Source: Christensenellaceae bacterium
Lineage (GTDB): Bacteria; Bacillota; Clostridia; Christensenellales; Borkfalkiaceae
DNA: 64,000 nucleotides
Assembly: GCA_045633745.1 (NCBI GenBank)
Contig: JAZQYW010000015.1
Span: 11,042-75,041, forward strand
Direction of reading: 5' to 3'
A program made the position numbers and the translations under genes. Below the pieces are notes generated by a model. The model worked only from the letters and a program-made list of their open reading frames with translations. It had not been told where the DNA came from and did not search any database. Shown here piece after piece: positions 35,338 through 56,048 of the stretch. Every line of letters begins with the position of its first letter. The stretch's first letter is position 1.

Positions 35338-35982
35338 TTAGAAAATCAAAGAAAGAATTTCTTTTGGATTATTAACGAAAGTGGTTGCACCCACTTCTTG
35401 AAGTTGGTCTTTATCTCTATATCCCCACAAAACGCTGATATTTTTTATACCCGCATTTATAGAAGTTAATACGTCGGTTTCGCCGTCGCCAACAAAAAAA
35501 GCGTTTTGTTTTTCAACGTTTAGTTTTTCTAGGATATTTAAAGTTGCCGTTTTATCAGGCTTACACTTAACACTACTGCTTTGCCCCACAACCATATCGA
35601 AGTTAAATGAAGAAAGATATTTTTGATAAACTTCATCAGTTGTCTTTTGTGGTTTGTTGGTTAAGATTGCAAGTTTATATCCCCTTTCCTTTAAGGTTAA
35701 AAGCAATTCCTTAACCCCATCGAAAAGCCTTGTTTTTGGGCTACCCGAACTGGTATAACTTTCATTATAAAAAGCCAACCTTTCATCTAATTCTTGTTCG
35801 GTGATATCCCCAAAACTTCTCTTAATTAAGTTTCTTGCACCGTTGCCTATAAACTGTCTTATTTCATCAGCATTGCGAAGTGGCGCATTAAACTTTCCTA
35901 AAGTAATATTAACGTGCTCTAATATATCTGGAAGAGAGTGAATAATCGTGCCGTCAAGGTCAAAAATAACAGCCTTATTCAT
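35338..35982 (-). CDS. HAD-family hydrolase (phosphoglycolate phosphatase-like)
   Basis: DLDGT motif I, TNK, GDGETD motif. Confidence 0.8.
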   Translation of the reverse strand: MNKAVIFDLDGTIIHSLPDILEHVNITLGKFNAPLRNADEIRQFIGNGARNLIKRSFGDITEQELDERLAFYNESYTSSGSPKTRLFDGVKELLLTLKERGYKLAILTNKPQKTTDEVYQKYLSSFNFDMVVGQSSSVKCKPDKTATLNILEKLNVEKQNAFFVGDGETDVLTSINAGIKNISVLWGYRDKDQLQEVGATTFVNNPKEILSLIF

Positions 35983-37664
35983 TACATTTCCTCAACTGTT
36001 TCAATACCTAATAATGTGAGTGCGTTAGTAAGTGTTATCTTAACTGCCTTTGTAATTGCCAAACGGAAGTTTTTAAGATTTTCATCTTCAATAGCAATCT
36101 TGCAGTCCATATAGAACTTGTTAAACGCTGTTGCAAGGTCAAGTGCATATCTTGTGACAAAAGATGGTTCATATTTATCAGCAGATGCCTTAACAACGTC
36201 CTTAAACCTTCCAAGTTCAGCGATAACGCCATATTCACTTGCGTTCATTTGGATATTAGAATATTTTGCAGGTTCGCCACACTTTGCCAAAACACTATTG
36301 CATCTTGCAATGGTATATTGAACGTAAGGGCAAGTTTCCCCTTCAAAACTCAACACTCTATCGTAACTAAAGGTTATGTCCTTAATCTTGTTGTTGCAGA
36401 GTGCACCGAAAATAACTGCACCCGTGCCGACTGCCTTGGCAATCTTTTCTTTATCTTTAAGAGTTGGGTTCTTTTCTTCAATAACGCTATAAGCCTTTTC
36501 GATAGTCTTATTTATAACGTCTTCAAGTAGCACCACTTTACCAGCACGTGTGCTCATTGCACCGCTTTCCAAACTTACCATACCGTAAGCAACGTGCACC
36601 ATATCTTTTGCCCAGTCCTTGCCCATAAGTTCAAGAACTTTAAAGAATTGTTTGAAGTGCAAGTTTTGTTGATATGCAACCACGTATAAACACTTTTCAA
36701 AATCATAAGTGTTCTTTCTATAAACGGCGGCGGCAATATCCCTTGTTGCATATAAGGTCGAACCATCTGACTTTAAGATAAGGCAAGGTGGCATATTATA
36801 TTCTTCAAGGTCAACGATAGACGCACCATCTGAAATCTTTATAAGATTTTTTTCTCTTAATTCATCAACGACAGGCGCCATTTTATCGTTATAAAAACTT
36901 TCGCCAGCATAACTGTCAAATTCAACGTTCAAAAGTTTATAAATCTTATCAACTTCTTCTAAAGTGATTTTCTTAAAGAGTTCAAAGAGTTTATTGCTGT
37001 CTTTATCGCCGTCTTCAATCAACTTAAAATAATGTCTTGCTTCATCGTCCATTTCTGGGTGAATTTTGGCTTCATCGTGATATTTAACGTAAATTCTTGT
37101 AAGTTCTTTTAATCTATCTTTTTCAACTTGTTCAATAGAACTCCATTTTTTAAAAGCAACTATAAGTTTGCCGAACTGCGTTCCGTAATCGCCAAGGTGA
37201 TTTATACCCACCACCTTATATCCCAAAAACCTAAAAATCTTGCAGAGTGCACTGCCGATAACGGTGGTGCTTAAATGCCCGATATGAAAAGGTTTTGCAA
37301 TGTTAATTGAAGAATAGTCAATACAAATGGTCTTGCCGTTGCCGATAGTATCAGCACCGTAATTTTCATTTTTTTCTAAAATTTCATCAAGCAATGCGTT
37401 TGCATAGTTTTGCCTGTTTATCTTAAAATTAAGATAACCGTTAACAGCAGTGCAATCGCTAATATATTCGTCTAAAACGAATTCTTGAGCAAGCGTTTGT
37501 GCAATCAACACTGGTGGACGGCGCATAATTTTAGAGAGTTTAAAACAAGGCAACGCAAAGTCACCCATATCATTATTTGGTGGCGTTTCGATAAACGAAT
37601 ATAATTCTTCAGCCGAAATGCCTTCAATATTAAGTTTTTCCGCAATAATTTTCTTATAATCCAT
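35982..37664 (-). CDS. argS: arginine--tRNA ligase
   Basis: HIGH-type PFHIGH motif; class I layout. Start moved to MDYKKI (ATG 37664), which follows a GGAG RBS. Confidence 0.95.
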   Translation of the reverse strand: MDYKKIIAEKLNIEGISAEELYSFIETPPNNDMGDFALPCFKLSKIMRRPPVLIAQTLAQEFVLDEYISDCTAVNGYLNFKINRQNYANALLDEILEKNENYGADTIGNGKTICIDYSSINIAKPFHIGHLSTTVIGSALCKIFRFLGYKVVGINHLGDYGTQFGKLIVAFKKWSSIEQVEKDRLKELTRIYVKYHDEAKIHPEMDDEARHYFKLIEDGDKDSNKLFELFKKITLEEVDKIYKLLNVEFDSYAGESFYNDKMAPVVDELREKNLIKISDGASIVDLEEYNMPPCLILKSDGSTLYATRDIAAAVYRKNTYDFEKCLYVVAYQQNLHFKQFFKVLELMGKDWAKDMVHVAYGMVSLESGAMSTRAGKVVLLEDVINKTIEKAYSVIEEKNPTLKDKEKIAKAVGTGAVIFGALCNNKIKDITFSYDRVLSFEGETCPYVQYTIARCNSVLAKCGEPAKYSNIQMNASEYGVIAELGRFKDVVKASADKYEPSFVTRYALDLATAFNKFYMDCKIAIEDENLKNFRLAITKAVKITLTNALTLLGIETVEEM

Positions 37665-37724
37665 AATATACTCCGTAAGCGTTTTAATAATAACATATAA
37701 TTTGTAAAAATGCAACTTAAAAAC

Positions 37725-39642: not shown

Positions 39643-42129
39643 ATGGTGCAATATAACGTGACTGGAATGAGTTGTTCGGCTTGTAGTAGCAGTGTGGAAA
39701 AAGCCGTTTCTAAAGTAGATGGCGTGACCACCTGTTCAGTCAACCTATTAACAAACTCTATGTCGGTTGAAGGAACAGCATCATCTCAAGATATTATAAA
39801 CGCAGTTAAGAAAGCAGGCTATGGTGCAACCCTTAAAAGCGATATAAACTTGCTAAAGGACACGCAAACACCCAAACTAAAAAAGCGACTTCTTTTATCC
39901 CTTGGCTTTTTAATCGCATTGATGTATATGTCAATGGGATATAATATGTGGGCTTTCCCCTTACCTAAACTCTTAACCAAAAATCCAATATCAATAGCAA
40001 TAATTCAATTTGTGTTAACTATCGTGGTTATGGTTATTAACCGAAAGTTCTTTATAAACGGTTTTAAGAGTTTATTACACCGCTCACCTAATATGGATAC
40101 GCTTGTTGCACTCGGCTCTTTTTCTGGTTTTCTTTACAGCAGTGTAACGCTATTCAAAATGTTTTTCCTTTTAGAAAACACCCTTGCCGTTAACAGCCTT
40201 TTGCACAACCTTTATTTTGATTCTTCAGCAATGATATTGACGCTAATTACTCTTGGCAAATTACTTGAGTCTAAATCAAAGGGTAAAACGACCAACGCAC
40301 TTAAAAAACTAATGAACCTTGCCCCACAAACGGCAACCGTTATTCGTGATGGAAATGAAATTATTGTTCCAGTTGAACAAGTAAAATTAGGCGACGTTTT
40401 TTTGGTTAAACCGGGCGAAAGTATCCCCGTTGACGGAATAGTTTTAGAAGGGAATAGTGCAGTTAATCAATCTTCACTTACTGGCGAAAGTATCCCTGTT
40501 GACAAAGTGGTTGGTGACATTGTTTCTTCAGCGACAATAAATCAATCGGGCTTATTAAAATGCAAGGCTATAAGAGTTGGCGAAAACACCACCCTATCCC
40601 AAATTATCCGTATGGTAAGCGACGCATCTTCAACCAAAGCACCGATTGCAAAGATTGCTGATAAAGTTTCTGGATTTTTTGTTCCAACAGTAATTATCAT
40701 TGCACTAATCACACTTTCGGTATGGTTAATAATAGGACAAAGTTTGGGATATTCGCTTTCTAGGGCGATATCCGTTTTGGTAATAAGTTGCCCTTGTGCT
40801 TTAGGACTTGCAACCCCCGTTGCAATAATGGTTGGCACGGGTTTAAGTGCAAAAAAAGGGATATTGTTCAAAACTGCAATTTCGCTTGAAAACACTGGCA
40901 AAACCGATATCGTAGTTTTAGATAAAACTGGAACTATTACTAAAGGCGAACCTGTTGTGACCGACGTTTTGGCGTATGAAATTAACCAAACTGATTTAAT
41001 ATCTTATGCTTACGCATTAGAAAAAAATAGCGAACATCCACTTTCAAAAGCCGTTGTAATAAAGGCACAAGAAATGGCACTTGACCTTAAAGCCGTGACC
41101 GATTTTAAAGCAGTTGCTGGAAATGGCTTAATCGCAAGTTTAGATAACAAAATCATTGCTGGTGGAAACGCAAATTTTATTTCTAAATACACCAAAATTC
41201 CTGACAGCGTAAAAGAACAAGCCGAAAATTTATCTTCGCAAGGTAAAACACCTTTATACTTTAGTTATGACAACAAGTTTTTAGGTGTTATTTGCGTTGC
41301 AGACGTTGTAAAAGAAGACAGCAAACAAGCCATTGATGAACTTAAAAATATGGGCATAAACGTTATTATGCTGACTGGCGATAATCAAAAAACGGCAGAT
41401 GCAATCGGCACTCAAGTGGGCGTTGACAAAGTCATTGCTGGGGTGATGCCACAAAATAAAATGCAAGTGGTTAATGGGTTAAAACAATATGGCAAAGTTG
41501 CAATGGTTGGCGACGGAATTAACGATGCCCCTGCCCTAACAAGTGCAGATATAGGCATTGCAATAGGTGCAGGAACGGATATCGCCATTGATTCAGCCGA
41601 TATAGTTTTAATGAAAAACAGCCTTTTGGACGTTGCAACAAGCATTAGATTGAGCAAAAATACACTCAAAGTTATTCACCAAAATTTGTTTTGGGCTTTC
41701 TTTTATAACACGATAGGAATTCCTATCGCATCGGGCGTTTTCGCATTGCTTGGGCTACTTTTAAACCCTATGATAGGTGCTCTTGCAATGAGTTTATCAA
41801 GCGTTTTCGTTGTCACAAATGCTTTAAGATTAAATTTAATCAGCACTGCCCCAAACAAAAAAATTAAAGATAAAAAAATAAAAATAGATAATATAGATTT
41901 AACTATAAAAAAGGAGAATAAAGTTATGGAAAAAACCTTAAAAATTGAAGGAATGATGTGTATGCATTGTTCTGGCAGAGTTAAAAAGGTGCTTGAAAGC
42001 CTTGCAGAAGTTGATAGCGCAGTAGTTAGCCACGAAACAGGCACGGCTATTATCACTCTCAATAAAGAAGTTGACTTATCGGTTCTTGTTAGCGTTATCG
42101 AAAACGAAGGATATAAGGTTATCGGCTAA
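39643..42129 (+). CDS. copA: copper-translocating P1B-type ATPase with N-terminal and in-frame C-terminal HMA domains
   Basis: GMSCSACS HMA domain, CPC TM motif, DKTGT phosphorylation site, GDGINDAP, and a C-terminal GMMCMHCSGRV HMA domain. Confidence 0.9.
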   Translation: MVQYNVTGMSCSACSSSVEKAVSKVDGVTTCSVNLLTNSMSVEGTASSQDIINAVKKAGYGATLKSDINLLKDTQTPKLKKRLLLSLGFLIALMYMSMGYNMWAFPLPKLLTKNPISIAIIQFVLTIVVMVINRKFFINGFKSLLHRSPNMDTLVALGSFSGFLYSSVTLFKMFFLLENTLAVNSLLHNLYFDSSAMILTLITLGKLLESKSKGKTTNALKKLMNLAPQTATVIRDGNEIIVPVEQVKLGDVFLVKPGESIPVDGIVLEGNSAVNQSSLTGESIPVDKVVGDIVSSATINQSGLLKCKAIRVGENTTLSQIIRMVSDASSTKAPIAKIADKVSGFFVPTVIIIALITLSVWLIIGQSLGYSLSRAISVLVISCPCALGLATPVAIMVGTGLSAKKGILFKTAISLENTGKTDIVVLDKTGTITKGEPVVTDVLAYEINQTDLISYAYALEKNSEHPLSKAVVIKAQEMALDLKAVTDFKAVAGNGLIASLDNKIIAGGNANFISKYTKIPDSVKEQAENLSSQGKTPLYFSYDNKFLGVICVADVVKEDSKQAIDELKNMGINVIMLTGDNQKTADAIGTQVGVDKVIAGVMPQNKMQVVNGLKQYGKVAMVGDGINDAPALTSADIGIAIGAGTDIAIDSADIVLMKNSLLDVATSIRLSKNTLKVIHQNLFWAFFYNTIGIPIASGVFALLGLLLNPMIGALAMSLSSVFVVTNALRLNLISTAPNKKIKDKKIKIDNIDLTIKKENKVMEKTLKIEGMMCMHCSGRVKKVLESLAEVDSAVVSHETGTAIITLNKEVDLSVLVSVIENEGYKVIG

Positions 42130-42154
42130 AACTTTATCCCCCCCAAAAAAAAGA

Positions 42155-42185
42155 AAAAGACAGGTTTTTTACCTGTCTTTTTTTG
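42155..42185 (+). terminator. rho-independent terminator after copA
   Basis: AGACAGGT-tttttt-ACCTGTCT stem plus a T-run. Confidence 0.75.
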
Positions 42186-42235: not shown

Positions 42236-42600
42236 AATGAATTAGAAACAAGTGTGGGTAGGCTCGCTTACTCTCTTTAAGAGTGAAGATGCGAACAGGT
42301 CAAGGCTCGCTATATACCACATAAAACTTATTTCTGTAAGAAATGAGTTAGAAGCAAGCAAGACAAGGCTCGTGCAAACGTTTACTCTCTTTAAGAGTGA
42401 AGATGCGAACAGGTCAAGGCTCGCTATATGCCACATAAAACTTATTTCTGTAAGAAATGAGTTAGAAGCAAGCAAGACAAAGCTCGTGCAAACGTTTACT
42501 CTCTTTAAGAGTGAAGATGCGAACAGGTCAAGGCTCGCTATATGCCACATAAAACTTATTTCTGTAAGAAATGAGTTAGAAGCAAGCAAGACAAGGCTCG
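42236..42600. repeat. tandem repeat, 114-bp unit x3 plus a shortened (106-bp) first copy
   Basis: TTACTCTC... recurs at 42268/42382/42496 and GTTAGAAG... at 42347/42461/42575 (period exactly 114); units are near-identical. Confidence 0.9.
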
Positions 42601-42619
42601 ACAAATCAAAGGACTAGAT

Positions 42620-42634
42620 TGACCTTTTGGGTCA
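42620..42634. promoter_or_regulatory. palindrome TGACC-N5-GGTCA (candidate HTH operator), copy 1
   Basis: TGACCTTTTGGGTCA preceded by AGAT; related copies at 45053 and 45137. Confidence 0.3.
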
Positions 42635-42657
42635 TTTAGGTCTTTGATGCGGTCAGT

Positions 42658-42683
42658 AAACGCAGTATTGCGACGCTTATAAC
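42658..42683. repeat. 26-bp direct repeat, copy 1 (overlaps the stop codon of the 755-aa gene)
   Basis: AAACGCAGTATTGCGACGCTTATAAC versus 45174-45199 AAACGCAGTATTGCGACGTTTATAAC (25/26). Confidence 0.9.
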
Positions 42684-44944
42684 TTATTTCTTTGGATTTT
42701 GCCACTTATAGTCTTTGGCAACTCATCACGGAAAACAACGACTCTTGGATATTTATAAGGAGCGGTGTGGTCCTTAACGTATTTTTGAATTTCTTTCTTC
42801 AATTCTTCAGTACCGACAGTACCTTTAGTTAAAACGATACTTGCTTTAACAACTTGGCCACGAACTTCATCTGGAACGGCTGAAACACCACATTCTAATA
42901 CGTATGGAAGTTCCATTATTACACTTTCGATTTCAAAAGGTCCGATACGATAGCCAGAAGGCTTAATAACGTCATCAACTCTGCCAACGTACCAAAAATA
43001 ACCGTCTTCGTCACGCCAAGCAGTATCGCCAGTGTGATATAAACCATCGTGCCAAGCATCATTTGTCTTTTCGGTATCACGATAATATTCTCTAAACAAG
43101 CCACAAGGCACTTCTTTATCGGTATGGATAACGATTTCGCCAACTTCACCAGCAGGAACGCTGTTGCCGTCTGCGTCAACAACGTCAACGTCGTATTGTG
43201 GGTTTGCTTTACCCATAGCGCCGATTTTTGGCGACGTGCCATAAAGGTTTGCAATAGCAAGCGTGGTTTCAGTTTGCCCAAAGCCTTCCATTATTTCAAG
43301 ACCAGTCGCTTCTTTGAACTTATTAAACACTTCTGGGTTTAATGCTTCGCCAGCAGTTGTCATATGGTGAATTGAAGATAAGTCGTATTTAGAAAGGTCG
43401 CCACGAATTAACATACGGAGCATTGTTGGTGGAGCACAGAAGGTTGTGATACTATATTTAGCAAACATAGGCAACAAATCGTTTTCATCAAACCTATCAA
43501 AGTCGTAAACGAAAACAGCACCTTCACAGAGCCATTGTCCGTAAAGTTTACCCCAAAGTGATTTCCCCCAACCCGTGTCGCTTATGGTTAAGTGCAAACC
43601 GTCACGTTCACAACAATGCCAATATTTAGCAGTAACAAAGTGTCCTAAAGCGTAAGTGTGCTTATGTGCAGCCATTTTTGGATTACCAGTCGTACCTGAC
43701 GTAAAGAACATAAGGGCTGTTTCATCGCCACAAGAACAATTTTCAGGGCGGTCAAACTTGCCAGAGAACAACGCATATTCTTTATCAAAATCGTGCCAGC
43801 CGTCTTTTGCGCCCCCTACCATAATAAGTTTTTCAACTTGTGGACATTTTTTGGCAGCACTTTCAGCATATTGATAAGTATCTCCGTCTGCAGTGCAAAC
43901 GATTGCTTTTACGCCAGCAGAATTATATCTATACTCAAAGTCGTGTTCTTTAAGTTGGTTTGTCGCAGGGATTGCAACTGCACCGAGTTTATGGAGTGCA
44001 ACCATACAGAACCAAAATTGATAGTGACGTTTAAGAACTAACATAACCTTATCGCCACGCTTAATTCCCAAAGACGTGAAATAGTTTGCAACTTGGTTAG
44101 ATGCACGTTTTATGTCCTTAAAGGTAAACCTTCTTTCAAACTTGTTTTTATCAAGGTGGAGCATTGCAAGTTTTTCAGGATATTTATCAGCGATGCCATC
44201 AACAATATCAAAGCCAAAGTTAAAGGTTTCGGTGTTCTTAAATTTAATTGACTCAAGTCTGCCATCTGCATCTTCTTTGGTTTCAACAAACTTTTCACAA
44301 ACAAGTTTTTCGCTTGTTTTAGCATTCATAACACTCTTTCTAACAACAGTTTCAGCCGAATTATCCCCAGACATAACAACTGCAACGAAGGTGCAATCTT
44401 TTCCATCAACGGCAATCATTCCGTGTGGCAAAGATGAGTTATAATAAATGCTGTCGCCTTCAGACAAAACTTCAACGTGGTCGCCAACTTGAATTTTAAG
44501 TTTGCCACTTAAAATAAGGTCAAATTCTTGACCGCTGTGTGTGGTTAAGTGGATAGGCTTGTCTTGTTGACTTTTTGAATATTCGTAAGTTACGTAATAA
44601 GGTTCTGCAAGTTTATCTTTGAATTTAGGCGCAAGATTAGAAATATCAATGCCATCTTCTTTGGCAGTTTCTCTACCTTGCCCTTTTCTTGTAACGGTAT
44701 AAGTTGATAATTTTGCTGACCTACCTTCCAAAAGGTCTGTCATATCAACGCCAAACGCCAACGCACATTTATGAATAAATGAGAAAGGAATATCTTCTTT
44801 TCCACTTTCATAAGCAAGATATTGCTTTTCTGTTACGTTTGTTTTTTCAGTCATTTCTTGTACGGAGAAACCAATAATTTCACGCAACTCCTTAATTCTT
44901 GTTGCTACTTCCGACAACTGATTTAAAGTGTTGTTTGTGTTCAT
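42677..44944 (-). CDS. fusion protein: XRE-family HTH + cupin + AMP-forming acyl-CoA synthetase (ANL superfamily)
   Basis: N-terminal HTH (IGFSVQEMTEKTNVTEKQYLAYESG), cupin (GDSIYYNSSLPHG), then ANL motifs FFTSGTTGNPK, GFGQTET, YHTGD, GRVDDVIKPSGYRIGPFEIE, PKTISGKIQR. AAGGAGG RBS lies 9 nt before the ATG. Confidence 0.8.
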   Translation of the reverse strand: MNTNNTLNQLSEVATRIKELREIIGFSVQEMTEKTNVTEKQYLAYESGKEDIPFSFIHKCALAFGVDMTDLLEGRSAKLSTYTVTRKGQGRETAKEDGIDISNLAPKFKDKLAEPYYVTYEYSKSQQDKPIHLTTHSGQEFDLILSGKLKIQVGDHVEVLSEGDSIYYNSSLPHGMIAVDGKDCTFVAVVMSGDNSAETVVRKSVMNAKTSEKLVCEKFVETKEDADGRLESIKFKNTETFNFGFDIVDGIADKYPEKLAMLHLDKNKFERRFTFKDIKRASNQVANYFTSLGIKRGDKVMLVLKRHYQFWFCMVALHKLGAVAIPATNQLKEHDFEYRYNSAGVKAIVCTADGDTYQYAESAAKKCPQVEKLIMVGGAKDGWHDFDKEYALFSGKFDRPENCSCGDETALMFFTSGTTGNPKMAAHKHTYALGHFVTAKYWHCCERDGLHLTISDTGWGKSLWGKLYGQWLCEGAVFVYDFDRFDENDLLPMFAKYSITTFCAPPTMLRMLIRGDLSKYDLSSIHHMTTAGEALNPEVFNKFKEATGLEIMEGFGQTETTLAIANLYGTSPKIGAMGKANPQYDVDVVDADGNSVPAGEVGEIVIHTDKEVPCGLFREYYRDTEKTNDAWHDGLYHTGDTAWRDEDGYFWYVGRVDDVIKPSGYRIGPFEIESVIMELPYVLECGVSAVPDEVRGQVVKASIVLTKGTVGTEELKKEIQKYVKDHTAPYKYPRVVVFRDELPKTISGKIQRNKL

Positions 44945-45052
44945 GGTTACATACCTCCTTGAAAATTTTTTAATTTATATATTTTTGTTTCTAAATATTT
45001 TTTAAGACAAAGATGCAAGTTAGGCTAGGCTCGACTAGACAAAGGACAAGAT

Positions 45053-45067
45053 TGACCTTTTTGGTCA
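45053..45067. promoter_or_regulatory. palindrome TGACC-N5-GGTCA (candidate operator), copy 2
   Basis: TGACCTTTTTGGTCA, perfect inverted repeat. Confidence 0.3.
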
Positions 45068-45136
45068 TTGAAATCAATATGTTTTTGTTTGTTAGAAACA
45101 AGCAAGACAAGGCTCGCAAAGCGTTTTGGGTGAGAT

Positions 45137-45151
45137 TAACCTTTTTGGTTA
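45137..45151. promoter_or_regulatory. palindrome TAACC-N5-GGTTA (candidate operator), copy 3
   Basis: TAACCTTTTTGGTTA, perfect inverted repeat, same flank AGAT. Confidence 0.3.
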
Positions 45152-45173
45152 TCGAAGTCAAAACGCAAAGCAG

Positions 45174-45199
45174 AAACGCAGTATTGCGACGTTTATAAC
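45174..45199. repeat. 26-bp direct repeat, copy 2 (immediately after the T-box terminator)
   Basis: 25/26 identity with 42658-42683, same orientation. Confidence 0.9.
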
Positions 45200-45200
45200 A

Positions 45201-45480
45201 AACAAAAACCCGTCTCAAAGCCCTTTTACTTTGAGACGGGTATTATTACTATACTCGCGGTACCACTCAAATTGTAGTTAAAACTACCACCTTCAGAGTC
45301 TGTCAACTCCTATACACTGACGTAGCAAACACGGAAAACCCTACTTGAAAAATCTTTTGGATTTTCGGCTCGGAAGTGATAAGATTTCTATTAGTTTTTG
45401 CTGGGATTTCACCGTCCCCAACTCTCTATGAAAAACGTGTTATAGAACCCGTCTTCGTCACAGCCTTTAACTATTAAGTT
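45201..45480 (-). promoter_or_regulatory. T-box riboswitch (tRNA-sensing leader), specifier probably AUC (Ile)
   Basis: Minus strand elements in order. Stem I has K-turn halves GUGACGAAG / CUUCCGAGCC, an AGAGAG bulge and a GGUGAAA distal loop. Then Stem III GTAGT-ttta-ACTAC and the T-box sequence AAUUUGAGUGGUACCGCGAG (45254-45273). The terminator is ACCCGTCTCAAAG/CTTTGAGACGGGT + T5 (45201-45241), and its 5' arm can pair with the T-box as an antiterminator. Confidence 0.85.
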
Positions 45481-45486
45481 AAACAA

Positions 45487-45515
45487 AGTTTAACATTTTA
45501 AAAAACCTTTGTCAA
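45487..45515 (-). promoter_or_regulatory. putative sigma-A promoter driving the T-box leader
   Basis: Minus strand TTGACA (45510-45515) - 17 nt - TAAACT (45487-45492). Confidence 0.55.
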
Positions 45516-52509: not shown

Positions 52510-52586
<77 letters not shown>

Positions 52587-52811: not shown

Positions 52812-54638
52812 CTATTTTAAGATTGCCTTAATTCTTCTTACACCACTTGAAGAACTTTCTTCTTTCTTGATGATAAATTGACCTAAATCACCAGTATTTT
52901 TAGCGTGTGGTCCACCACAAATTTGCTTGTCAACACCTTCGATTGTGTAAATTGAAACAATTTGGTCATCACTTTCAGCGTTGAATACGCCGTATGCACC
53001 TTGTTTAACAGCATCGCTATAAGCAAGTTCTGTTCTTACAACGTCAATTTTCTTTGCGATAACGTCGTTGACAAAGTCTTGCAATTCTTTGATTTCTTCA
53101 TCGGTCATCTTATGGTCTAAATTAAAGTCGAAACGCAATCTTTCTTCAGTAATGTTAGAGCCCTTTTGTTCTGTGCCAGTACCGAACATTTTGCGAAGAC
53201 CAGCAAGCATAATGTGTGTTGCAGTGTGATAATTTGTTGTAATTTCAGTTTGTTCGGTTAAACCACCTTTAGCAGACTGTGCTTGAGCCTTTGAAAGTTC
53301 TTGGTGAGCCTTAAACGCTTCGTTAAAGCCTTGTTCATCAACAGTCAAGCCCCTTTCGTTTGCAAGTTCGATAGTGAGTTCTAATGGATAACCGAAAGTA
53401 TCGTAAAGCCTAAATGCTTGCTTACCTGAAATTTGTGTTTCTTCCACGTAATTAGCATCTTTTTGCTTCATAAATTCGTTCTTTCTTTGCATACCCATAA
53501 CGCACTTGTCAAATTCTTTCATACCAGCAGTAAGGGTTGCTTCAAACTTTTTGATTTCCTTATTGAATTCGTCTAAAATATAATCTTCTTTTTCAACTAA
53601 AAGTGGATATGCTTCATCATAAACCTTTTCAATGAAAACTTTAGCAACGTCACACATAGCAGTTGATGGAATACCAAGGTTTTTAGTGTATCTAATAGCA
53701 CGGCGAAGAAGTCTTCTTAAAACGTATCCAGCACCAGTATTTGATGGAGTGATACCTTTAATATCGCCGATTAACATAACTGCAGTTCTTGTATGGTCTG
53801 CAATAATACGCATAGCCTTTGTATATTCGTCATTTTCGCCATACTTTTTGCCAGATGCTTGTTCCAAACTTGCAATAGCGCCAGCAAAAAGGTCTGTTTT
53901 ATAGCCATCATCTAAACCATTTAAGAACAACAAAAGTCTGTCCAAACCAAAACCTGTATCAACGTTTTTATTTTCAAGTTCAGCGTATTTTCCGCCTTCT
54001 AACTTTTTATATTGCATATAAACGTCGTTGCCGATTTCAACGTATCTTCCGCAATCGCAGTTAACGTCACACTTATCGCAACAAGGATTGTCGTGGCGTG
54101 GATAGAACCACTCGTTATCAGGACCACAAGGTGTTCCAACTGTGCCTTCTAATTCCCACCAGTTGTTTGACTTATCAAGATAGAAAATATTTTCTTCTTT
54201 AATGCCAAGTTCTTTTAAGTAGCCAGCCGTTTCATCATCTCTTTTAACAGCATCATTACCTTCAAAAACAGTAGAGCAAATCTTATCTTTATCAAAACCA
54301 AAGACTTCGGTCAAAAGTTCAAAAGACCAAGCGGTTTTTTCCTTTTTAAAGTAATCGCCCAAACTCCAGTTTCCCATCATTTCAAAGAAAGTGAAGTGCG
54401 TTGCATCGCCAACAGAATCGATATCAACCGTTCTAACGCAACCTTGCACGTTGCAAAGTCTTGTGCCTGCTGGGTGTTTTTTGCCAAGTAAATATGGCAT
54501 AAGTGGTTGCATACCTGCAACGTTAAACATAACGCCAGTCGTACCATCGCCGATTAATGAAACAGCGCCGATATTTGTGTGACCTTTGCTTTCGTAAAAT
54601 TTAATCCATTTTTCTCTTAATTCTTTAGAAGTAATCAT
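52812..54638 (-). CDS. alaS: alanine--tRNA ligase, short form (catalytic + tRNA-recognition + editing domains, no C-Ala domain)
   Basis: FFEMMGNWSLGDYFK class II motif; editing-site HTATHIM and CGGPH motifs; only 608 aa. Confidence 0.8.
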   Translation of the reverse strand: MITSKELREKWIKFYESKGHTNIGAVSLIGDGTTGVMFNVAGMQPLMPYLLGKKHPAGTRLCNVQGCVRTVDIDSVGDATHFTFFEMMGNWSLGDYFKKEKTAWSFELLTEVFGFDKDKICSTVFEGNDAVKRDDETAGYLKELGIKEENIFYLDKSNNWWELEGTVGTPCGPDNEWFYPRHDNPCCDKCDVNCDCGRYVEIGNDVYMQYKKLEGGKYAELENKNVDTGFGLDRLLLFLNGLDDGYKTDLFAGAIASLEQASGKKYGENDEYTKAMRIIADHTRTAVMLIGDIKGITPSNTGAGYVLRRLLRRAIRYTKNLGIPSTAMCDVAKVFIEKVYDEAYPLLVEKEDYILDEFNKEIKKFEATLTAGMKEFDKCVMGMQRKNEFMKQKDANYVEETQISGKQAFRLYDTFGYPLELTIELANERGLTVDEQGFNEAFKAHQELSKAQAQSAKGGLTEQTEITTNYHTATHIMLAGLRKMFGTGTEQKGSNITEERLRFDFNLDHKMTDEEIKELQDFVNDVIAKKIDVVRTELAYSDAVKQGAYGVFNAESDDQIVSIYTIEGVDKQICGGPHAKNTGDLGQFIIKKEESSSSGVRRIKAILK

Positions 54639-54656: not shown

Positions 54657-56048
54657 TTACTTTTTTTCAAGTGAATATCCGTCTTTGCTATCCTTAACAA
54701 CGTATCCCAAAGTTGCAATTTCATCTCTTAACTTATCAGAAAGTGCCCAGTCTTTATTTTGTCTTGCCAAAACTCTTTGTTCTGCAAGAGCAACAACTTC
54801 TGCTGGAATATCGCTATTTTGGTTTTGTTCATATTCTTTAATAAACGCATCTACGTCACTTGTAAACAAGCCGATTAAAGAATAAGTATTTATAATTTGA
54901 TTTACGTCTGCAACAGCAGTGCTATCGCCCTTATTAACCTTTGTTCTAACACTCTTAAACAAACCGAAAAGGTTGCTTATTGCAAGTGCAGTGTTAAAGT
55001 CATCGTCCATCGCCTTATTAAATAAATCATCGATTTCCTTGTTTTCGCCTGCAAAATCGCCGAACTTATCTTTTACACTCTTGATGATTTTATAAAAATC
55101 ATAAAGGTGACTTTGAGCATCTGGGAAAAGGTTGTCTGTGACGTTTATATCCCCACGATAGTTAGTTTGCAAAAGTGCAAACTTAATGGTTTCATCGCTA
55201 TATTTATCAAGTAAATCTTTCAAAAACAAACTGTTGCCGAGTGATTTGCTCATTTTTTGACCGTTAACTTTAATCAAGCCGTTATGAATCCAAAAAGATG
55301 CAAATTGCTTGCCAGTCAATGCTTCAGTTTGTGCAATTTCGTTTTCGTGGTGTGGGAAAATCAAGTCCCTGCCACCACCGTGGATATCAATTTGTTCGCC
55401 AAAAGCCTTTTTGTTCATTGTTGAACATTCGATGTGCCAACCTGGTCTGCCTTCGCCCCAAGGAGAAGCCCAACTTGGTTCGCCAGCCTTTGCAGATTTC
55501 CAAAGTGCAAAGTCCAAAGGATTTTTCTTCATTTCATCGTTTTCCACTCTAACGCCGTTCATTGCGTCTTCAAGATTTCTGTGTGACAATTTGCCGTAAG
55601 ATGGGAAACTTTCAACCGAGAAATATACGTCGCCCTTATCGGTTGGATAAGCGTGACCTTTATCAATAAGCGTTTGAACAAAGGCAATGATTTCATCAAT
55701 GCTTTGGGTTGCTTTAAGCCACAAGTTTGGTTCATCAACCTTTAATCTTGCCATTTGTTCATCAATATTTTTAATCATTTGTTCAGCATAAACGTCTGCA
55801 GGAATACCTGTTTCGTTAGATTTAGCGATAATCTTATCGTCAACGTCTGTATAGTTTCTTGCATAAGTGACGTCATAGCCTTTCTTTTCCAAATATTTTC
55901 TAATGATATCGTAAATAAGCGCTTGGTAAGCGTGACCTATGTGTGCTTCGCCAGAAACGGTGATGCCACAAGCATACATTTTAACCTTGCCTTCTTCAAG
56001 TGGTATAAAATCTTGTTTTCTTCCCGTCAAGGTATTATAAATTTTCAT
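54657..56048 (-). CDS. cysS: cysteine--tRNA ligase
   Basis: HIGH (EAHIGHAY) and KMSKS motifs. Confidence 0.95.
   Translation of the reverse strand: MKIYNTLTGRKQDFIPLEEGKVKMYACGITVSGEAHIGHAYQALIYDIIRKYLEKKGYDVTYARNYTDVDDKIIAKSNETGIPADVYAEQMIKNIDEQMARLKVDEPNLWLKATQSIDEIIAFVQTLIDKGHAYPTDKGDVYFSVESFPSYGKLSHRNLEDAMNGVRVENDEMKKNPLDFALWKSAKAGEPSWASPWGEGRPGWHIECSTMNKKAFGEQIDIHGGGRDLIFPHHENEIAQTEALTGKQFASFWIHNGLIKVNGQKMSKSLGNSLFLKDLLDKYSDETIKFALLQTNYRGDINVTDNLFPDAQSHLYDFYKIIKSVKDKFGDFAGENKEIDDLFNKAMDDDFNTALAISNLFGLFKSVRTKVNKGDSTAVADVNQIINTYSLIGLFTSDVDAFIKEYEQNQNSDIPAEVVALAEQRVLARQNKDWALSDKLRDEIATLGYVVKDSKDGYSLEKK

Follow-up and report, generated by a model that had tools for sequence, protein, structure and literature searches.

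The question raised by this locus is why a riboswitch that responds to uncharged transfer RNA should stand in front of an acyl-CoA synthetase. The stretch analysed here, called the window throughout, comprises 64,000 nucleotides (64 kb) of a Christensenellaceae bacterium (assembly GCA_045633745.1, contig JAZQYW010000015.1, positions 11,042 to 75,041) and carries on its minus strand a T-box leader followed by a gene that fuses a helix-turn-helix (HTH) domain and a cupin to an acyl-CoA synthetase. An earlier interpretation of the same DNA, made from the letters alone and referred to here as the sequence-only reading, had assigned the leader to tRNA-Ile and had suggested that isoleucine (Ile) starvation induces an enzyme of Ile synthesis from 2-methylbutyrate. 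In light of the present analysis, we consider it probable that a transcriptional T-box specific for Ile responds to uncharged tRNA-Ile by inducing a CoA ligase that activates 2-methylbutyrate, feeding reductive carboxylation and transamination to Ile.

The RF00230 covariance model of Rfam matches the minus strand at 45470..45229 with 98.4 bits (gathering score 93, E 1.9e-20), and its alignment spans model positions 1-219 untruncated, as expected of a full-length leader. An Rfam scan finds this one T-box only in the whole 64 kb window. The leader and its promoter are composed of the following parts.

45487..45515, minus strand: sigma-70-type promoter, with -35 TTGACA at 45515..45510, a 17-nt spacer with TG extension, and -10 TAAACT at 45492..45487 (consensus scan)
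45229..45470, minus strand: T-box leader RNA, RF00230, full length (Rfam covariance model)
45368..45464, minus strand: Stem I, with K-turn UGUGAC / CGA, basal helix GAAG/CUUC, specifier loop, AG bulge AGAGA and distal loop GGUGAAA (covariance-model alignment)
45378..45380, minus strand: specifier codon AUC (Ile), then A45377, then the basal helix (covariance-model alignment)
45254..45273, minus strand: T-box sequence AAUUUGAGUGGUACCGCGAG in the antiterminator, with the UGGU bulge at 45262-45265 (sequence and covariance-model alignment)
45198..45241, minus strand: intrinsic terminator, stem 45241..45208 and U-rich tail 45207..45198 (terminator scan, model alignment and minimum free energy (MFE) fold)

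The promoter agrees with the consensus at 10/12 positions and is the top-scoring site on its strand within 40-47 kb. The K-turn halves read UGUGAC GAAG and CUUC CGA GC, AGAGA in the AG bulge and GGUGAAA in the distal loop fit the consensus of the model (AGAGA and GGUGaaA), and Stems II, IIA/B and III all align to the model as well. The terminator stem has 14 pairs (7 G-C) and is followed by UUUUGUUUGU; the MFE fold displays this hairpin, whose 5' arm CCCGUCUCAAAG is common to the antiterminator and the terminator. The UGGU bulge would pair with a tRNA 3' end NCCA, the discriminator being A. Every computable hallmark of a T-box was found, namely a score above the gathering threshold, a K-turn with specifier loop, an AG bulge with distal loop and an antiterminator that competes with a terminator, and the window RNA is an ordinary, canonical member of RF00230 of the transcription-attenuating type. 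The sequence-only reading had described a complete minus-strand T-box with a TTGACA-17-TAAACT promoter, K-turn halves, AG bulge, GGUGAAA loop, Stem III, UGGU bulge and a terminator sharing its 5' arm with the antiterminator; the searches recover each of these where it had been placed (the promoter at 45515..45487, with TG extension; the bulge at 45265..45262), the terminator stem computing to 14 bp.

Downstream of the leader, the same strand encodes the fusion protein.

42677..44944, minus strand: gene for the 755-aa HTH-cupin-acyl-CoA-synthetase fusion (open reading frame with Pfam and NCBIfam searches)
44954..44960, minus strand: strong ribosome-binding site AAGGAGG, 9 nt 5' of the ATG (sequence)
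44723-44899, minus strand: HTH_19 domain, aa 16-74 (Pfam, 39.4 bits, cut-off 30.2)
44378-44551, minus strand: Cupin_2 domain, aa 132-189 (Pfam, 43.6 bits, cut-off 27.2)
42698-44191, minus strand: acyl-CoA synthetase part, aa 252-749, with AMP-binding (252-621) and AMP-binding_C (671-749) (Pfam)

Both N-terminal domains exceed their Pfam gathering scores, and an XRE-family HTH plus cupin architecture is present. The fusion is indeed the next gene, as had been claimed; its start at 44944 lies 263 nt beyond the terminator stem, where about 250 nt had been estimated.

The adjacency of leader and gene is widely conserved. More than 8000 homologs of the fusion are known to the searches, the nearest at 95% identity, in metagenome-assembled genomes (MAGs) of gut and rumen Clostridia. 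The comparative set holds one genome per species and 79 loci with a full-length homolog at 63-94% identity, labelled Christensenellaceae, Acutalibacteraceae, Oscillospiraceae and similar, and mostly from the ruminant and human gut; these are MAGs with 4-kb flanks, and the numbers given for neighbouring genes are minima, limited by how far the flanks reach. T-boxes in these relatives were found by nhmmer with the window leader and aligned by MAFFT. A full T-box lies directly upstream of the ortholog in 69/79 species loci, the terminator or leader end being 16-80 nt from the start codon in most of them, which bears out the proposed T-box control of the synthetase fusion. The remaining 10/79 comprise three leaders cut by a contig end, four loci short of upstream sequence, two leaderless loci (L052, L067) and one locus with the gene of the valine (Val) class in its place (L076). 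Equivalent TTGACA/-10 promoters precede nearly all of the related T-boxes. Altogether the 79 loci hold 122 full T-boxes: 69 with AUC, one per locus, before the ortholog, and the others with GUA or GUC, before a second HTH-cupin-synthetase paralog that has its own promoter and its own Val T-box in 53 loci.

The amino acid to which the leader answers can be read from the specifier loop. The RF00230 model puts AUC (45380..45378) and the following A at its 'uuc a' positions, directly 5' of the basal helix strand CUUC. In the MAFFT alignment of the 122 related leaders, the block NNN-N-CUUCCGAGC stands in perfect register and the specifier column reads AUC in 69, GUA in 47 and GUC in 6; AUC occurs in 69/69 full-length leaders upstream of orthologous genes, and the loop bases 5' of the triplet vary freely. 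For a subset of leaders, Rfam alignments give the same specifier columns; they score 65-91 bits and each spans model positions 1-219. Specifiers were taken from these alignment columns rather than from a rule-based parser, which gave spurious first matches. Shifting the GUA/GUC leaders by one base yields UAG or UAA, both stop codons, which fixes the specifier frame; and since the paralogous leaders have the same basal helix and K-turn as the window leader, the same frame holds for the latter. Other triplets can be read in the loop as well; the frames UCA, UUA and UAU are ruled out by the covariance model and by the 69 orthologous AUC leaders, the shifted paralog frames being stops. Leu, Phe or other specifiers before fusion homologs were absent among the 122 leaders and three more distant loci. 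Judged by this alignment, the leader is specific for tRNA-Ile (specifier AUC, anticodon GAU). The sequence-only reading had likewise placed AUC at 45378-45380 and named a run of the covariance model, which might choose UCA or UUA instead, as the check; the model returned the same triplet, and the 69 orthologous leaders agree.

Further, the specifier tracks the protein that follows it. The 111 downstream proteins form two clusters by the unweighted pair group method with arithmetic mean that coincide exactly with the specifier, 70 of the Ile class (the window protein included) and 41 of the Val class, with no nearest-neighbour mismatch between specifier and paralog clade; protein identity is 72-73% within a class vs 62% between the two. 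Both units are present in 47 loci, and the order is always Ile then Val (e.g. L016 6312-8909, L065 6302-8891); no terminator was found between ACS1, the synthetase gene of the Ile unit, and the Val promoter in these tandem loci. The second, Val-specific paralog is not in this window. A library-wide search at the 50% cluster level yielded two more distant clusters of full-length fusions, one at 57% identity with an AUC leader and then a GUC leader, and the other at 44% identity, in which an AUC leader precedes a tandem pair of fusions and a class I/II aminotransferase.

It is the homology of the enzyme that points to its substrate. The top NCBIfam model for the fusion protein is MbcS (NF047394, 442.8 bits), and among solved structures the closest is MacsMa of Methanosarcina acetivorans (3ETC), which matches aa 228-753 with 635 bits. 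The preferred substrate of MacsMa is 2-methylbutyrate (PMC10455477), and MbcS selectively activates 2-methylbutyrate and isobutyrate (PMC10026030). By this homology, the fusion enzyme belongs to the AMP-forming short/medium-chain acyl-CoA synthetases of MacsMa/MbcS type, and 2-methylbutyrate is its most likely substrate. Across the 111 family members, W442, W459, K461, W464, C503 and G556 are invariant in both classes. We take these to be the equivalents of the MacsMa acyl-pocket residues as reportedly given by Meng et al. 2010, of which Trp259 alone is confirmed (PMC10455477). Twelve positions cleanly discriminate the Ile class from the Val class, and only one of them lies in the enzyme part.

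43565..43567, minus strand: codon of Gly460, in the segment DTGW-G-K (class comparison of 111 proteins)

This position, between W459 and K461, is Gly in 69/70 Ile-class and Ala in 41/41 Val-class proteins; its neighbours presumably correspond to the pocket residues Trp254 and Lys256 of MacsMa. It is attractive to infer that G460/A460 is a candidate substrate switch, in which an extra methyl in the pocket wall would suit an acid one carbon shorter. The other 11/12 discriminating positions fall within the HTH, linker and cupin (window residues 10-214, about 44303-44917 on the minus strand), which suggests a class-specific sensing or DNA-binding role of the N-terminal module, and the C-terminal domain is 86-87% identical both within and between classes. 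No solved relative of the N-terminal 231 residues was found by sequence search.

The company that the synthetase keeps in related genomes provides a context for this chemistry. Under the Ile T-box of L014 stands an operon of the synthetase, a CbiA/ParA-like P-loop gene, a 2x[4Fe-4S] delta subunit, a POR_N+PFOR_II alpha subunit, a TPP_enzyme_C beta subunit, a POR gamma subunit and an Aminotran_4 gene, in which alpha, beta, gamma and the small, ferredoxin-like delta make up a 2-oxoacid:ferredoxin oxidoreductase and Aminotran_4 is a class IV (branched-chain) aminotransferase. The same gene set stands behind a Val leader in L076, and L024 has the order LeuA-like gene, a fusion of a TIM barrel with an AMP-binding domain, Ile T-box with ACS1, Val T-box with ACS2, and class IV aminotransferase. 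Within the 4-kb flanks, the P-loop gene occurs in 35 loci, the oxidoreductase alpha gene in 24 and the aminotransferase in 13. A CoA ligase, a 2-oxoacid:ferredoxin oxidoreductase and a branched-chain aminotransferase are together the enzyme set that the reductive carboxylation route needs. The amino acid of the specifier and the controlled gene thereby agree by context, in the paralog clades as well as in these operons. Labelling work by Allison, Robinson and colleagues in the 1960s reportedly established the reductive carboxylation of branched short-chain acids to branched-chain amino acids. The branched-acid route is also cited for Methanobrevibacter (PMC2812497). The rationale offered by the sequence-only reading, activation of 2-methylbutyrate and its reductive carboxylation for Ile synthesis, is supported by the L014 operon, the MacsMa substrate and MbcS as the best model.

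Two neighbours at these loci deserve mention on their own account. The conserved P-loop gene, of about 220 aa, always lies between the synthetase and the oxidoreductase genes (L014 6275-6937 and 34 other loci). The fusion with the TIM barrel is an 816-aa protein, xylose-isomerase-like (AP_endonuc_2) with an AMP-binding part, upstream of the Ile unit in L024 (1200-3650), L004 (275-2731) and some 25 further loci. Its identity to the synthetase of the window is no more than about 26%; frequently it is followed by an Amidohydro_2 gene (L004 2745-3593) and preceded by a LeuA-like gene. No T-box was found before this paralog at E <= 0.001 in six loci.

The proposed mechanism can be put as follows. 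Transcription would begin at the TTGACA/TAAACT promoter. With charged tRNA-Ile, the 14-bp terminator would form and transcription would end near 45200; with uncharged tRNA-Ile, the anticodon would pair with AUC in Stem I and the free ACCA end with the UGGU bulge, so that the antiterminator is stabilised. RNA polymerase would then continue across the repeat insertion, some 260 nt, and on into the gene (44944-42677), and the synthetase would convert 2-methylbutyrate to 2-methylbutyryl-CoA, which a 2-oxoacid:ferredoxin oxidoreductase would reductively carboxylate to 2-oxo-3-methylvalerate for transamination to Ile. The switch would thus turn on the scavenging of branched short-chain acids at Ile shortage, and in related genomes the sister system, with Val specifier and paralogous enzyme, would follow the same logic for isobutyrate and Val. 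The tRNA dependence of read-through, the passage over the repeat in this genome, the substrate and the direction of the pathway are the steps that we infer.

Several observations weigh against this chain of events. The oxidoreductase, aminotransferase and P-loop genes are not encoded in the 64 kb window, where the synthetase stands alone; the search for 2-oxoacid:ferredoxin oxidoreductase genes that the sequence-only reading had advised is therefore positive for the operons of relatives (L014; alpha in 24 loci) and negative for the window itself. In tandem-paralog loci, the oxidoreductase and aminotransferase genes sit behind the Val T-box and would not obviously be inducible by Ile starvation alone. 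The base 3' of AUC is C, not the usual purine, in 20/69 Ile-class leaders (e.g. L018, L030, L077). The MbcS score of 442.8 is far under the equivalog cut-off of 850, which makes the enzyme a relative and not an equivalog-level member. Finally, the 263 nt between terminator stem and start codon make the coupling less certain in the window than in relatives; the spacer RNA with its repeat folds strongly (z -3.7), and a weak terminator-like hairpin of 5 pairs lies at 45117..45102, the only such hairpin there.

The origin of that spacer can be traced by comparison. In the close relatives L005, L007, L008 and L011-L014, the terminator is separated from the ribosome-binding site by 20-40 nt, and, as this comparison has it, the 263-nt gap is a lineage-specific repeat insertion and not native leader sequence. 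The repeat, of about 108 nt and with internal hairpins, reads TTATAARCGKCGCAATACTGCGTTT ... ACCAAAAAGGT ... CGAGCCTTGTCTTGCTTGYTTCTAAY, and it brackets the synthetase gene, with 1.6 copies in the 5' spacer and one from the stop codon, followed by a 114-bp array.

45091..45198, minus strand: repeat copy 1, full, between terminator and gene (repeat comparison)
45008..45077, minus strand: repeat copy 2, partial (repeat comparison)
42575..42682, minus strand: repeat copy 3, starting inside the Leu-stop codons TTATAA of the gene (repeat comparison)
42268..42600, minus strand: 114-bp unit repeated in tandem, with 2.9 copies that are 98% identical; it has the 3' third of the repeat element in common (repeat comparison)

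The arms that flank copy 1 (45209..45191 and 45099..45081) pair over 19 nt at 95% complementarity. In relatives, the start of the repeat always coincides with the TTATAA Leu-stop of either ACS1 or ACS2, or else follows closely on the T-box terminator, and the repeat is restricted to a clade at >=87% protein identity (seen in L003, L004, L006, L007, L008, L010, L013, L048 and L049); the insertion between terminator and gene is common to the window, L048, L003 and L010, with leader and gene intact in all three relatives. No known RNA family was found by Rfam in the spacer or the repeats, and the element may be a MITE/REP-like element (miniature inverted-repeat transposable element or repetitive extragenic palindrome) or a 3'-untranslated-region RNA. 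An integron attC site was considered and set aside, the GTT...AAC ends being in the wrong order with respect to RYYYAAC...GTTRRRY. The palindromes of the spacer and its TTGAYT-17-YAATCT units were likewise rejected as operators or a second promoter, being part of a repeat that is also found behind genes and reaching <=8/12 as promoters. In the clade of the window, the stretch from terminator to start codon holds different, unrelated insertions per species (L009 3557-3863, L049 3820-3977, L006 3930-4001), and it appears to be an insertion hot spot. With no promoter-like site in the spacer at the scan threshold (9/12) and only a weak 5-bp hairpin, we assume that transcription from the T-box promoter reads through the inserted repeat into the gene.

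It could be argued that leader and gene have become uncoupled in this genome, the repeat blocking read-through or having its own start site, so that the leader is an orphan and the synthetase independent of tRNA-Ile. The spacer of 263 nt against 16-80 nt in most relatives is in keeping with this, as are the folding of the insert as a long hairpin, its weak terminator-like hairpin and its two TTGAYT-17-YAATCT units around palindromes; moreover, the same element lies at the 3' ends of genes in relatives, where it might end transcripts. However, the promoter-like sites of the spacer stay at or below 8/12 for a threshold of 9/12, the weak hairpin has 5 pairs only, the intact leader scores higher than the Rfam gathering threshold, and L048, L003 and L010 retain the insertion with an intact leader and gene, which argues for a tolerated and functional layout. 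We therefore hold uncoupling to be quite unlikely. An unlikely alternative of another kind keeps the T-box and changes the fate of the product: the enzyme would supply branched acyl-CoA primers for anteiso/iso membrane fatty acids, as MbcS does in Staphylococcus aureus, and scarce Ile would mean scarce catabolic 2-methylbutyryl-CoA, so that external 2-methylbutyrate is activated for lipid synthesis. MbcS being the best-scoring NCBIfam model, its documented role in branched-chain fatty acid priming (PMC10026030) speaks for such a use, and so do the solitary position of the synthetase in the window, with no oxidoreductase or aminotransferase close by, and the genes for a DegV protein (fatty-acid-binding family) and an acyltransferase that lie a few kb upstream. 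Yet the operons of relatives join the synthetase with a 2-oxoacid:ferredoxin oxidoreductase and a branched-chain aminotransferase, neither of which is required for priming; separate Ile and Val switches on separate paralogs suit amino-acid supply better, and the equivalog cut-off of MbcS is not reached.

A further proposal shifts the emphasis to the N-terminal module, and would make the fusion mainly a transcription factor (a 'trigger enzyme'): the T-box would set its level, its HTH-cupin part would regulate other genes on information from the adenylating domain, and the activation of acids would come second. HTH_19 and Cupin_2 are both over their Pfam cut-offs, the concentration of 11/12 class-discriminating residues in the N-terminal 214 residues indicates class-specific selection there, and the fusion is conserved down to 44% identity. 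On the contrary, the invariant core adenylation residues and the C-terminal domain, 86-87% identical within and between classes, indicate that the enzyme is maintained; inspection by eye of 120 aligned promoter regions showed no conserved operator near the promoters, and a sequence search gives no solved relative for the N-terminal part. As a replacement for induction of the ligase by the Ile-specific T-box we find this very unlikely, but the two are compatible and do not exclude one another. A combination of them is possible, though doubtful: the HTH-cupin-synthetase fusion could be a two-input device, in which the T-box reports demand (uncharged tRNA-Ile or tRNA-Val) and the N-terminal sensor reports supply, feeding back on transcription. 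If so, the supply signal would be the matching branched acid, the acyl-adenylate or the amino acid, and the targets would be the oxidoreductase/aminotransferase genes or the gene itself. Such a BirA-like 'trigger enzyme' on top of a riboswitch would account for Ile starvation inducing genes behind the Val T-box.

Set beside known systems, the leader resembles the ileS and ilv/leu T-box leaders of Firmicutes in its full architecture, UGGU bulge, competing terminator and AUC specifier; unlike these, it has as its target an acyl-CoA synthetase fusion, in place of a gene for an aminoacyl-tRNA synthetase, for classical biosynthesis or for a transporter. The window enzyme is similar to MacsMa across both adenylation domains, whereas MacsMa is archaeal, is without the HTH-cupin module and is not known under a T-box. 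With MbcS it shares the AMP-forming ligase type, but MbcS feeds fatty-acid priming and lacks a DNA-binding module, and no T-box is reported for it. Enzyme-regulator fusions are known from BirA, a biotin ligase and repressor, and XRE-cupin regulators from PuuR; the window protein is akin to these in joining an adenylate-forming enzyme to an N-terminal helix-turn-helix, with the cupin as a likely small-molecule sensor, although its domains are not homologous to those of BirA. The gene sets of relatives are exactly what the reductive carboxylation route of rumen anaerobes and methanogens requires; in contrast to that route as known earlier, specifier codons here mark which paralog serves which amino acid. 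No link of a T-box to an acyl-CoA synthetase or a 2-oxoacid:ferredoxin oxidoreductase was found in the searchable full texts and T-box surveys (TBDB and RegPrecise lay outside this scope), in agreement with the remark of the sequence-only reading that this is not a typical T-box target. Nor was a description of the genes or regulation of branched-acid activation in Clostridia found in the searchable literature. The new element is the target gene, undescribed in that literature, and the T-box logic, inducing the supply of the starved amino acid, is standard.

The remaining features of the window bear on its general layout.

42152..42184, either strand: terminator hairpin, bidirectional, separating the synthetase gene from the copper P-type ATPase gene that converges on it (terminator scan)
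39643-42129, plus strand: copper P-type ATPase gene, convergent to the synthetase gene (domain searches)

Three aminoacyl-tRNA synthetase genes in the window, for ArgS, an AlaS-like protein and CysS (35982-37715, 52812-54638 and 54657-56048), are without a T-box at the Rfam gathering threshold; the AlaS-like protein is unusually short at 608 aa, and a tRNA-Arg(ACG) gene lies at 52510-52586. A c-di-GMP-I riboswitch-like match at 44660-44751 on the minus strand, inside the coding region of the HTH and linker, reaches 27 bits where the gathering score is 35 (E 0.02) and is probably due to chance.

It has been known for some sixty years that rumen and gut anaerobes build Ile and Val from 2-methylbutyrate and isobutyrate. 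The specifiers described here would serve as built-in labels for this chemistry, with AUC marking one synthetase clade and GUA/GUC its sister clade, both in association with an oxidoreductase and an aminotransferase, and they would thereby provide, for at least 79 species of uncultured Clostridia from gut and rumen, a concrete gene set for a pathway that is classical yet genetically uncharted. The finding would extend the T-box regulon to acid scavenging and add to it a regulator-enzyme fusion. Moreover, it may be of relevance to the feeding of branched-chain volatile fatty acids in ruminants and to cross-feeding in gut communities.

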